Source: Chlorobiota bacterium (GTDB lineage: Bacteria > Bacteroidota > Ignavibacteria > Kapaibacteriales > UBA2268). Taken from it: 50,632 nucleotides of DNA. Shown piece by piece: positions 30,167-36,871 of the stretch (position 1 is its first letter; every line of letters begins with the position of its first letter). The position numbers were made by a program, and so were the translations under genes. A model generated the notes under the pieces. It had not been told where the DNA came from and did no database searches. It saw only the letters and a program-made list of their open reading frames with translations. Location: NCBI GenBank assembly GCA_041595255.1, contig JBFHKR010000003.1, positions 1-50,632 of the forward strand. Reading direction: 5' to 3'.

Positions 30167-30769
30167 TTATTTTCGTTTATTTTCGTTCCAAGTTTTGTAT
30201 TTATTTTGTTGTATTTTTCTGTTTTTAGGTATTTCTCTTAAAGGTTCACATGGTTTTAAAGTCTCTTTTAACTCCTGAGGTAGTTGTTGATATAACTTAG
30301 TACCTTCTGTTTTCCAATCTAGCATTTGATCCGATACATCCTTGACTATTTTTGCAGGATTCCCCACAACTACCTTCCTATCAGGTATTATCATCTCTGC
30401 TGGTACGAAGCATAGAGCGCCAATAATACACCCGTCTCCTACTATAGCATTATCCATTACTACGGCATTCATACCGACTAAAGTATTTCTACCTATCTCT
30501 CCACCATGGATTATAGCTCCATGACCTATATGTGCCGATTCTTTAAGTAATACAGTTATCCCTGGAAACATATGAATAGTGCAATTCTCTTGCACATTGC
30601 AACCGTCTTCGATTACTATACCACCCCAATCACCTCTTATTGCTGCCCCAGGGCCTATATAAACATCTTTGCCAATTTTTACATTTCCTGTAACTGTAGC
30701 ATTAGGATGGATATAAGCTGATTCATCTATAACTGGGATGAATCCATCAAATTCGAAAATATTTGCCAT
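30167..30769 (-). CDS. Gamma-carbonic-anhydrase-like hexapeptide-repeat protein (PaaY/CaiE family)
   Basis: IRGDWG, NVQENCTIH and HIGHGAIIHG motifs; C-terminal PLRE...R tail as in PaaY. Confidence 0.88.
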   Translation of the reverse strand: MANIFEFDGFIPVIDESAYIHPNATVTGNVKIGKDVYIGPGAAIRGDWGGIVIEDGCNVQENCTIHMFPGITVLLKESAHIGHGAIIHGGEIGRNTLVGMNAVVMDNAIVGDGCIIGALCFVPAEMIIPDRKVVVGNPAKIVKDVSDQMLDWKTEGTKLYQQLPQELKETLKPCEPLREIPKNRKIQQNKYKTWNENKRK

Positions 30770-32034
30770 TATCTAGGTATAGTTATTGTTACTTTAGTTC
30801 CTTTGTCCAATTCACTTTCTATTTTCATATTGCCGCCTAGTAAATCCAAATTATGCTTGATAATAGATAAACCAAGTCCGGTACCTTGTACTAAACTTGA
30901 GATTTTGTCTTCTCTTTTAAAAGCTTCTGTTAGATTGTTAATATTCTCTTTAGCTATCCCAATTCCTCTATCCCTTACAGTGATTATACAATTGTAACCA
31001 TCTGCAATCATTTTTAGTTTAATTTTAGGTTTTTCGGAGGAATACTTTATAGCATTAGATAGTAAGTTGTTCACTATTTGATTACAAAGTACTTTGTCAG
31101 AATCTACAAATACGTTTCCTTCTGGTATTTCGAGTTTTACTACTTTATTATATGCTTTATTGTTTTCTACCAGTGTCTTTACTTCTTTACGAATATCAAA
31201 TACTTTTTTGGAAGCTTTTATTTCACCGTGCTCGAGTTTACCTATGTTAAGCACGTTTTCCATTAATGCTGTCATTGTATCTATTGACTTAGAGATTTTA
31301 TCTAAGTTTTTATAAAACTTTTCTTCGTCACTTCTTTCGTAAGATTTTTCTAATAAGAAAGTAGCAGATTGAATAATAGTTAAAGGAGTTCTGAATTCAT
31401 GAGAAACCATTGATATAAACTTAGTTTTCAGTTTATTTAATTCCATTTCATTAGCTAAGGCTTTCTCTATCTGACCTTTTACTACGTTCAGCTCTTTCTG
31501 AGATTCTAATCTCTTTAGATTTTCTTCTTGTAGGTCACTATTTATTTTTTCTAGTTCTTGAGTCCTTTTATCAACTTGTTCTTCAAGTTGCTTAATAATG
31601 TGTCCTACTTCTTCTTTTTTTGTATGACTAATCGTAACATCTTCTACTACTACGCAAAGTCCATAAACTGTGTTGTTTTCATCTATTAGAGGGAAGTAAG
31701 TATCTTTATAGTAAGATCTTTCTAGTGCTTCTTCGCCATATTGTTCTACTACTGTGAAATTCTCACCCACTAAAGCGCGGTCAAAGTTTCTTTTAGCTTT
31801 ATCTCTATCGTTTTCGATATGTATATAATCGAGTATATTGTGACCTAACTTAATATCTACAGCCCAAATATTGTTCATTATATAGCTATGTAGCTTATTA
31901 AAATATAGATAGTTATAGTTTTTGTCCAAAGCGAAAACTACAAGATTGGGATGGCAATCAAGAATATGAGATAGTATTGATGTATTTTTCATTTCATCTA
32001 ACATATATGCAATATATGGAATTAAATAATACAC
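30769..32034 (-). CDS. Cytoplasmic PAS-domain sensor histidine kinase (real start probably ATG at 31992)
   Basis: PAS-like N-terminus, coiled coil, H-box SHEFRTPL, N-box NLLSNAIKYS, G1 DRGIGI and G2 GTGLGL. Confidence 0.93.
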   Translation of the reverse strand: MYYLIPYIAYMLDEMKNTSILSHILDCHPNLVVFALDKNYNYLYFNKLHSYIMNNIWAVDIKLGHNILDYIHIENDRDKAKRNFDRALVGENFTVVEQYGEEALERSYYKDTYFPLIDENNTVYGLCVVVEDVTISHTKKEEVGHIIKQLEEQVDKRTQELEKINSDLQEENLKRLESQKELNVVKGQIEKALANEMELNKLKTKFISMVSHEFRTPLTIIQSATFLLEKSYERSDEEKFYKNLDKISKSIDTMTALMENVLNIGKLEHGEIKASKKVFDIRKEVKTLVENNKAYNKVVKLEIPEGNVFVDSDKVLCNQIVNNLLSNAIKYSSEKPKIKLKMIADGYNCIITVRDRGIGIAKENINNLTEAFKREDKISSLVQGTGLGLSIIKHNLDLLGGNMKIESELDKGTKVTITIPR

Positions 32035-32048
32035 AATACAGTAACAAT

Positions 32049-32131
32049 AAAAAAAAACGCCCCAAACCGAAGTTCAGGGCGCGTTTCAACAGGAGGACCT
32101 ATGAAATATAGGGGTTGTACTTCTCAGTACA
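32049..32131 (-). ncRNA. Putative trans-acting small RNA (~83 nt) with anti-SD core and intrinsic terminator
   Basis: Minus strand reads: UGUACU-GAGA-AGUACA hairpin, CCUAU-AUUUC-AUAGG hairpin, UCCUCCUGUU, then GCGCCCUGAAC-UUCG-GUUUGGGGCGU running into U9. A CGTCTA -10-like element lies just upstream. Confidence 0.65.
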
Positions 32132-32137
32132 TATATA

Positions 32138-32166
32138 TAGACGCATCTATATTGAGTTTAATTGTA
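32138..32166 (-). promoter_or_regulatory. ECF-type promoter of the putative sRNA (TACAAT-N17-CGTCTA)
   Basis: Canonical ECF -10 CGTCTA 6 nt before the 5' hairpin. The -35 is only a loose match to TGCAAC/TGTAAC; an A-tract lies upstream. Confidence 0.5.
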
Positions 32167-32192
32167 TGAAATTTAATTTTTTTTTAATTTTT

Positions 32193-32212
32193 TATGTCAA
32201 ATAAATGACATA
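32193..32212. promoter_or_regulatory. Perfect 7-6-7 palindrome TATGTCA-N6-TGACATA, candidate operator with CRP/FNR-family-like geometry
   Basis: Exact inverted repeat centred about 71.5 nt upstream of the inferred sRNA 5' end. Confidence 0.5.
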
Positions 32213-32260
32213 TTATAAACAATTTTTCAAATAGCCTTAAAATAAAGAACATAGGGTAAA

Positions 32261-33022
32261 TTACTTTACTGAAAACGACGCTGTAATTACAGCTTTTATT
32301 GTTTTTAATCGCGATTGGGTATCGAAACTACCATAATCAGACACTTCTGTAGAGTTTCTAGAAGTAATCTGGAATACACCCTGAGATGCACTTTGCAAAG
32401 TGCCTACTTCGCTATCAGTATTACCCGCTAATTTTTCAGCTCTTTCATATGCGTTTTTACTCGCTTCACCTAGCATTTCCAATTTCAAATCTTCTATTTT
32501 AGTATAAAAATATTGTGGCTCGAATGAGCTAATATTTACCCCTTGTTGAATCAAATCAGTAGCTTTTTGAGATATTTCTTCTACTTTATCCAAATTTTTA
32601 GATTGAAAAGAAATATTCATTGTCAATTCATAGCCTTCTAACTGATTAGTTTCACCATACCCATTGTCTTTTTGCTGATAAATCTCACGAGTATAAACTG
32701 CACTCAACTTTATATCTTTTTCTGATATACCGTTATCGCGTAGATATTTCATTGTTCTTGCTTTGAAATCATTTATTTGTGCATAGGCAGATGTCAAATC
32801 AGAAGACCTAGCTTTAAGTAGCGACATCCATTGTCCTAAATCTGATTCTATATCTTTTTGAGCATATCCCTTTACTTCAATAGAGTTTCTATGTGCGTTG
32901 TCTATGCGTTTCGCTTCTGTGAAATACCACCCAAGTAGCCATGCTCCTATTATTATTCCTACTGCAAGAAATAGACCTAGACCTGCAGCATTACTACCTT
33001 TCGAAATGTTTTTATTTTCCAT
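32261..33022 (-). CDS. SIMPL (DUF541) domain protein
   Basis: N-terminal TM, IEVKGYAQKDI.SD, YFYTKIEDLKLEML..A..NAYERA and GVFQIT motifs. Confidence 0.88.
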   Translation of the reverse strand: MENKNISKGSNAAGLGLFLAVGIIIGAWLLGWYFTEAKRIDNAHRNSIEVKGYAQKDIESDLGQWMSLLKARSSDLTSAYAQINDFKARTMKYLRDNGISEKDIKLSAVYTREIYQQKDNGYGETNQLEGYELTMNISFQSKNLDKVEEISQKATDLIQQGVNISSFEPQYFYTKIEDLKLEMLGEASKNAYERAEKLAGNTDSEVGTLQSASQGVFQITSRNSTEVSDYGSFDTQSRLKTIKAVITASFSVK

Positions 33023-36656: not shown

Positions 36657-36871
36657 GTAGAGAAGTATTGCATACGTCTCTGAACACCCTATTAATACTG
36701 CCCTATGACTAAAGGTTTGTGGCTGCCACGCGTTGGGCGTAGGCAATCTCTTTTTGTAAGAATCATAATTTACAGAAATCGAATGAATTTATACTGTGTT
36801 TATTAATATTGAACACCCCGTCTCACGCCTAAGGCGTGATCCACCCCTCTTTCGCTACGCTTAAAGAGGGG
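36657..36871. repeat. Cluster of GC-rich REP/MITE-like hairpins
   Basis: GTAGAGAaGTAT-TGC-ATACgTCTCT (36657-36681); TGCCACGC-N5-GCGTaGGCA (36724-36745); TCACGCC-TAA-GGCGTGA (36823-36839); CCCCTCTTT-N10-AAAGAGGGG (36844-36871). Confidence 0.6.

Follow-up and report, generated by a model that had tools for sequence, protein, structure and literature searches.

What is encoded in the AT-rich gap that separates the SIMPL/DUF541 gene at 32261-33022 from a kinase gene of the HisKA/HATPase type without a PAS domain (30769-32004, ATG at 32004; domains by Pfam), if anything is? The window, by which we mean the whole stretch of 50,632 nt that was analysed, belongs to a genome of 3.05 Mb with 32.9% GC that is 99.65% complete. 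Within the gap, the minus strand (32166-32049) carries a compact element that a first-pass annotation had described as a small RNA with an ECF promoter, acting as a stress-induced repressor of many mRNAs. The element is indeed a GC-richer island, as had been claimed, with 49% GC in 32057-32131, whereas the intergenic DNA on either side has 18% and 22%. We consider it likely that this island is a real RNA gene of about 85 nt, representing a new sRNA family of a familiar type. The best explanation taken as a whole, i.e. a free-standing, genus-restricted sRNA gene of a stress regulon whose product pairs in trans, commands slightly less than even confidence.

Read along the minus strand, the element begins with a -35-like box, TACAAT (32161-32166, with CAAT as its core), which lies a fixed 17 nt from a -10-like box, CGTCT (32139-32143), of the ECF-type CGT/CGTC form; the spacer between the two varies in sequence. 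Seven nucleotides, ATATATA, lead from CGTCT to hairpin 1, UGUACU-GAGA-AGUACA, which has a GNRA loop (32116-32131; -5.3 kcal/mol), and an ACC linker leads on to hairpin 2, CCUAU-AUUUC-AUAGG (32098-32112; -2.4 kcal/mol). The loop and 3' arm of hairpin 2, UAUAUUUCAU, are antisense to AUGAAAUAUA. A core predicted to be single-stranded follows, UCCUCCUGUUGAAAC (DNA TCCTCCTGTTGAAAC; 32083-32097), and within it lies CCUCC, which we take to be the same letters as the anti-Shine-Dalgarno (anti-SD) of 16S rRNA. The element closes with an intrinsic terminator, GCGCCCTGAAC-TTCG-GTTTGGGGCGT, which has an 11-bp stem and a UUCG loop (32082-32057; -16.9 kcal/mol) and continues into a run of eight to nine U residues ending at 32049. 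The layout first described for this strand is correct in all its details, including the complement AACAGGAGGACCTATGAAA, of which TTTCATAGGTCCTCCTGTT is the reverse complement. An RNA of approximately 83-86 nt is predicted from these parts (32049-32134, minus strand); it would be transcribed from about 32134, a few bases past CGTCT, to the U-run at 32049, where the strong terminator would stop the polymerase.

Folding differs sharply between the two strands. For the minus strand the minimum is -34.3 kcal/mol (z = -4.19), which none of 200 shuffled sequences matched; the plus strand reaches -24.8 kcal/mol (z = -1.32), and 25 of its 200 shuffles did as well. As the first-pass annotation had noticed, G-U pairs contribute on the minus strand only: three pairs of the terminator stem, in the window's version, are of this kind. 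A scan for the terminator consensus found three sites where shuffled sequences gave 0.2, and the site with 11 pairs is the hairpin of this RNA. The terminator stem also shows the compensatory changes among relatives that the annotation had proposed to look for, with three pairs changed on both sides, four changed on one side, and 97.5% of the cells paired. In the same alignment of 12 sequences, 11 of them distinct and drawn from genomes of the genus and from metagenome homologues, hairpins 1 and 2 showed no covariation. Hairpin 2 is invariant across the 11 distinct sequences, and five pairs of hairpin 1 are invariant as well, with the outer pair broken in one metagenome homologue (L136). Because these two hairpins never covary, the argument for RNA structure there is a thermodynamic one. 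The energy minimum in fact contains an alternative second hairpin, UUUCAUAGG-UCCU-CCUGUUGAAA, whose -5.9 kcal/mol beats hairpin 2, and since neither region varies, the two foldings are indistinguishable.

The lack of covariation leaves some room for a reading without any functional RNA, in which the palindromes would be DNA operators and the terminator hairpin would serve the upstream gene only. The palindromes of hairpins 1 and 2 may have a role at the DNA level, and we found no other good terminator between the SIMPL stop codon and the element. A further palindrome, TGTC-N8-GACA (32195-32210, minus strand), is located upstream of the promoter motif and is a candidate regulator site; its GACA half is invariant, its TGTC half is present in nine of the ten genomes of the genus (CGTC in the tenth, G002), and three genomes have a 10-nt indel in the A/T-rich spacer next to it that preserves the helical phase. 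Nevertheless, we regard the absence of a functional RNA as very improbable, given the strand specificity of the fold and a conserved promoter-like motif at the right distance. Moreover, the gene upstream changes between genomes while the whole element stays, and an invariant block of 48 nt that includes a non-palindromic 15-mer far exceeds an operator.

That block is the body of the element, 48 nt from hairpin 1 to AAAC (alignment positions 10-57), and all aligned sequences have it in identical form, save for three substitutions in L136 and the deletion of a single C in three sequences. The protein encoded by the adjoining kinase gene is 53-81% identical within the genus and 67% identical in L136. 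The first-pass annotation had staked its reading on the persistence of the core and of the CGTC element in relatives, and both are kept, the core in 12 of 12 aligned sequences and CGTCT in the ten genomes and in the metagenome homologues aligned. Such extreme conservation suggests that the body is functionally dense, and coding potential does not appear to account for it. A mini-ORF on the plus strand stands behind a perfect AGGAGG-N5-ATG, with a length that ranges from 12 to 50 aa and a frame that is shifted in three of the 12 sequences; the minus strand, read from hairpin 1, gives ATG TAC TGA. Judged by these comparisons, the element is non-coding on both strands. A peptide gene on the opposite strand was ruled out, as neither the length nor the frame of the ORF is conserved, and the antisense RNA of a type I toxin-antitoxin system was ruled out as well, because there is no conserved small ORF on the opposite strand.

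A real transcript could still belong to the kinase gene rather than stand alone. As a 5' leader or attenuator, the RNA would be the first part of a transcript from the CGTCT promoter, and together with its terminator would gate read-through into an operon of genes for the kinase, a hexapeptide protein and a rhomboid protein. Indeed, the element is always co-oriented with this operon and directly upstream of it. The gene on its other side varies among the ten genomes of the genus: it is SIMPL in six, three have a protein of 144-145 aa that ends in GGGDLGGL..., and G006 has a remnant of the latter gene. Since the upstream gene differs between genomes, the element travels with the operon downstream. 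In G006 and on the metagenome contig L152 (possibly not independent records) the kinase gene is an internally deleted remnant while the RNA is perfectly kept and its terminator compensated. At the G006 locus (L009:1622-1940), as on L152, the N-terminal fragment of the kinase ends in a stop codon, the C-terminal end is in another frame, and the next gene is intact.

The kinase gene also appears to have a promoter of its own. The box TATATTGC (32016-32009, minus strand, within a feature at 32002-32016) lies outside the RNA and 4 nt before the ATG, as in leaderless mRNAs, and all ten genomes and L136 have a box of the form TA(T/A)ATTGC at 3-4 nt before the ATG (TAnnTTGC-N3/4-ATG). Promoters in the window's genome are of the Bacteroidota type, with 545 sense versus 381 antisense occurrences of TAnnTTTG and a peak 25-42 nt before ATGs; a secondary peak of TAnnTTTG/TAnnTTGY boxes, at 3-5 nt from the ATG, is what leaderless mRNAs would produce. 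In Flavobacterium psychrophilum, the TAnnTTGY box spans -12 to -5 (PMC9723704), so transcription of the kinase gene would start at its ATG. This fits the earlier proposal that TATATTGC is the kinase's own promoter and argues against a mere leader, even though the box is non-canonical, which counts in favour of a leader. The kinase box and the region upstream of the sRNA were also inspected by eye for Sigma-54 and canonical TAnnTTTG promoters, and both interpretations were rejected.

Six metatranscriptomic runs contain the locus, and four were examined as assembled contigs. All four have a contig that bridges the terminator into the kinase gene, and run X16 has contig cover across the entire gap, promoter included. 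In three separate studies a contig stops at 32112, 32114 or 32121, i.e. 11-22 nt downstream of the predicted 5' end, with no loose end. Both the bridging and the stops agree with a leader. The depth of these contigs is flat, 4-10 everywhere, and DNA carry-over is possible; at best, the contigs hint weakly at a start near 32125-32135 and at some read-through. The uncovered parts, 32122-32235 in run X17 and 32115-32234 in run X18, fall in very AT-rich DNA and were not counted as evidence. Against a leader stand the strength of the terminator and its U-run, and the body offers no convincing antiterminator: no partner for the terminator arms is apparent in it, and the arms vary freely while the body is constant. 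We therefore hold a leader to be unlikely. Because the RNA is intact where the kinase gene is degraded and the kinase gene has its own conserved box, which fits the leaderless class, the free-standing sRNA is favoured by the comparisons made here, in agreement with the stand-alone unit first proposed.

When might such an RNA be made? The motif xCAAT-N17-CGTCT upstream of the sRNA is conserved in the genomes of the genus and in L136 despite differing spacers, with AAAAT instead of ACAAT in the -35-like box of G004. A strict pattern, ATAMAAT-N15-18-CGTCT, found only the sRNA site in a promoter-like position, and relaxing it to CAAT was productive: the window's genome has 16 sites of the form CAAT-N16/17-CGTCT, of which four were called upstream of genes. 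Three precede the genes for the N-terminal part of ClpB, which is split in two, for HtpG and for a membrane protein of the Bax1-I/YccA type (Pfam), the last with CAAT-N17-CGTCT; the fourth is the site of this RNA, scored against the downstream kinase gene. The first two sites recur in relatives. TCAAT-N16-CGTCT precedes the N-terminal clpB half in nine of nine loci examined, each with a different spacer, and TCAAT-N16-CGT precedes htpG in ten of ten loci, reading CGTCT in six, CGTCA in one and CGTTA in three. Considering the CGTCT box by itself, we find it upstream of both clpB halves, htpG, lon, the Bax1-I gene and trxA, at 35-51 nt from the ATG, with less clear -35 parts in the case of the C-terminal ClpB half, Lon and thioredoxin. 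Unlike clpB and htpG, groES is preceded by a perfect CIRCE operator.

These distributions indicate, as far as motif positions can, a proteostasis-stress regulon under an ECF-like alternative sigma factor, which would read xCAAT-N16/17-CGTCT. Since clpB, htpG and the YccA-like gene share this motif with the RNA, its transcription would occur under heat or proteotoxic stress, and the first-pass claim that it is stress-induced gains support. We think it somewhat more probable than the contrary that the RNA is a member of this regulon. The motif xCAAT-N16/17-CGT(CT) provides a testable regulon hypothesis that links the RNA to clpB, htpG and other proteostasis genes.

The designation of the promoter as ECF, also made at the outset, holds in part. 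The -35 element of ECF promoters usually contains AAC and lies 16-18 nt from the -10 element. The -10 box CGTCT agrees with the CGT(C) expected of such promoters, whereas the -35 box, TACAAT or TCAAT, contains AAT in place of AAC. Furthermore, the genome has 17 genes of the sigma-70 family, five with (T/G)GTCT boxes upstream, and CAAT-N16/17-CGTCT was found upstream of none of these 17 loci. Roughly 14 sigma factors of this genome are of ECF size. SigR/SigH ECF promoters of actinobacteria (GGAAT-N18-GTT) control a regulon with thioredoxin, Clp and Lon. The likeness consists of AAT at the end of the -35 element, a distance of about 18 nt from there to a -10 element containing GT, and a regulon of proteostasis and thiol genes; here, clpB, htpG, lon and trxA have CGTCT boxes. 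The present motif differs in belonging to another phylum and in its -10 element, CGTCT, and we identified no SigR-like pair of sigma and anti-sigma factors. A further case is described in F. psychrophilum, where a CGT-box motif (SM6) is assigned to ECF sigma factors and precedes the putative sRNA Rfp11 (PMC9723704). SM6 genes there mostly concern type IX secretion (PMC9723704), whereas the motif described here precedes chaperone genes. The likeness of Rfp11 to the present RNA lies in the CGT box of its promoter.

Several minor observations concern the same promoters and the chaperone genes. A CAAT-N18-TGTCTA site lies 12 nt ahead of the ATG of hrcA. The CIRCE operator before groES is at C170:3437-3463, and groES also has a GGAGG Shine-Dalgarno (SD) sequence. 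Upstream of htpG (L167-L173) we see a conserved inverted repeat of the ATGCA...TGCAT type and an A-tract just upstream of TCAAT, an arrangement that parallels the palindrome and A-tract before the sRNA promoter with a different sequence. Scattered over the genome are 26 copies, at three or fewer mismatches, of a palindromic repeat that is about 21 nt long and has the core GAGACGTA...TACGTCTC; they often form tandem pairs in intergenic DNA (examples are position 36660 of the window, C38:6919, C46:9127-9292 and C69:9279-9318). This repeat contains CGTCTC and thus contaminates naive scans for CGTCT promoters.

What the RNA would do is the weakest step of the explanation. In outline, its near-invariant body would act in trans by pairing over the starts of translation. 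The candidates for this contact are the CCUCC stretch and the loop and arm UAUAUUUCAU, whose complement AUGAAAUAUA is a common start of genes for exported proteins here, and under stress some proteins would then be made in smaller amounts. The envelope-stress RNAs of the Sigma-E regulon in enterobacteria (MicA, RybB, MicL) provide the model: they are small, end in a terminator, have an ECF-type promoter and pair near the start codons of mRNAs for exported proteins. The RNA described here resembles them in its terminator, its ECF-like stress promoter and its working model. It differs from them in that it has no sequence or structure match in Rfam and another promoter motif, in that Hfq was not found in the genome, and in that its regulon partners are the cytoplasmic chaperones clpB and htpG, not envelope genes.

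The stronger form of the idea, a repressor with many targets that uses an anti-SD core, is not supported. Allowing at most 20 nt to the start codon, GGAGG precedes 37 of 2348 crude gene calls (1.6%) and AGGAG precedes 107; this Kapaibacteria-type lineage hardly uses SD sequences. We compared predicted duplexes of the exposed part of the RNA (duplexfold) over about 2340 crude start regions with internal and upstream controls, a crude test on home-made gene calls, and found no enrichment: 79 start windows reached -14 kcal/mol or lower, versus 71 and 63 control windows, and a second comparison of this kind gave a similar picture. A genome-wide search for an extended target site gave none beyond chance with exact 11-12-mers and their contexts, and fuzzy 14-16-mers gave 912 matches, again at chance level. 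The RNA shares with the CU-rich anti-SD sRNAs of Gram-positives, RsaE and RoxS, an exposed C/U-rich stretch complementary to GGAGG. Those RNAs have several C-rich motifs and act in SD-rich genomes, whereas a single CCUCC is present here, GGAGG is as rare as stated above, and no Rfam match links the families.

Two features of start regions could bear on pairing. Eighteen genes begin with ATGAAATATA, and 15 of them look exported, versus 29% of all genes; the few genes led by GGAGG include groES, flagellar-looking genes and many lipoproteins. We retain pairing with mRNA start regions as a tentative candidate, somewhat less probable than not. In a bolder version, the RNA would shut down the minority of mRNAs with GGAGG and/or exported proteins beginning with AUGAAAUAU in proteotoxic stress and without Hfq; it would then be an RNA directed against initiation regions, driven by a stress sigma factor, that joins the ribosome's own CCUCC to an anti-start-codon loop in a lineage that has nearly abandoned SD sequences. 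We deem this version improbable; if it were true, bacteria of the Bacteroidota type would have a novel way of triaging translation globally.

A serious rival to pairing arises from the conservation itself, because an invariance of 48 nt exceeds the need of a single seed. The RNA may be real and yet act by binding a protein or the ribosome, as a sponge, mimic or scaffold, rather than by pairing with mRNAs. Nearly the whole body is invariant and not just a short seed, target prediction gave no signal, and CCUCC has the letters of the 16S anti-SD. Moreover, a search of the genome, at 99.65% completeness, detected one protein with an RRM domain and no Hfq. On the other hand, the RNA has no repeated short motifs like those of known protein sponges, no protein gene is linked to it, and several overlapping seeds could also explain the invariance. 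We judge this alternative to be rather unlikely.

The few SD sequences of this genome invite some remarks of their own. The gene for ribosomal protein S21, rpsU (C28:17938-18099), has a long SD-like sequence, GAGAGGTGAT, and a GTG start; it was considered as a target and rejected, since this SD pairs poorly with the sRNA. In Bacteroidota, a retained SD of the rpsU type is reported likewise. Several of the 37 GGAGG genes, on contigs C43 and C119, look flagellar by eye, with N-termini like those of FliG, FliJ, hook protein and flagellin, and genes with an SD, rare as they are, may fall into functional groups.

How far does the element extend beyond this genome? It had been described as unannotated, and the Rfam 15 covariance models, run over the whole 50.6-kb window, gave no match at the gathering threshold. 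A permissive scan added six sub-threshold matches driven by the terminator, the best with 18.9 bits versus a threshold of 47. By BLASTN, the element occurs once in each of ten of ten genomes of the genus (metagenome-assembled genomes labelled Kapaibacteria/Ignavibacteriota) at 84-100% identity, and the genome to which the window belongs has no second copy. Covariance model R1 scores 112-120 bits in these genomes (119.7 bits for the copy in the window). BLASTN against 51 relatives outside the genus returned short AT-rich matches only (E of at least 0.0028). Among 130 genomes of the family, R1 found nothing above 33 bits in the 120 outside the genus, and the best ten of these matches, when aligned, consist mostly of generic terminators and of partial agreement with the core that is due to chance; in a phylum sample of 151 genomes, it found nothing above 32.3 bits in the 148 others. 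Of 39 loci on metagenome contigs that matched a sequence pattern, seven are true homologues with 92.8-118.8 bits. The remainder were set aside, 31 as coincidences in coding sequences and one (L123) as an unrelated GC-rich terminator. As far as these searches reach, the element appears to be confined to one genus of Kapaibacteria-type Bacteroidota.

This lineage is uncultured and yet common in wastewater and sediment. A full-text search found no paper on a regulatory RNA of Kapaibacteria or Ignavibacteria, the matches listed all being sRNA papers on unrelated matters. If confirmed, the RNA would provide a first handle on stress control by alternative sigma factors and on Hfq-independent riboregulation in these groups.

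Two further features of the genome were noticed in passing. A small class of genes with TAnnTTG(Y) or TAnnTTTG 3-5 nt before the ATG suggests leaderless mRNAs, and one other gene (contig C11, strand index 28389) shares the TTCCATATATTGCA of the kinase gene almost letter for letter. ClpB is encoded as two unlinked halves, at C1:51713-53023 and C18:5973-7292 (L157 and L161), one with the domains Clp_N, AAA and AAA_lid_9 (436 aa) and the other with AAA_2 and ClpB_D2-small (439 aa), each with CGTCT 35-40 nt before its ATG, and the N-terminal half is kept as a separate frame of 286-471 aa in nine genomes of the genus.
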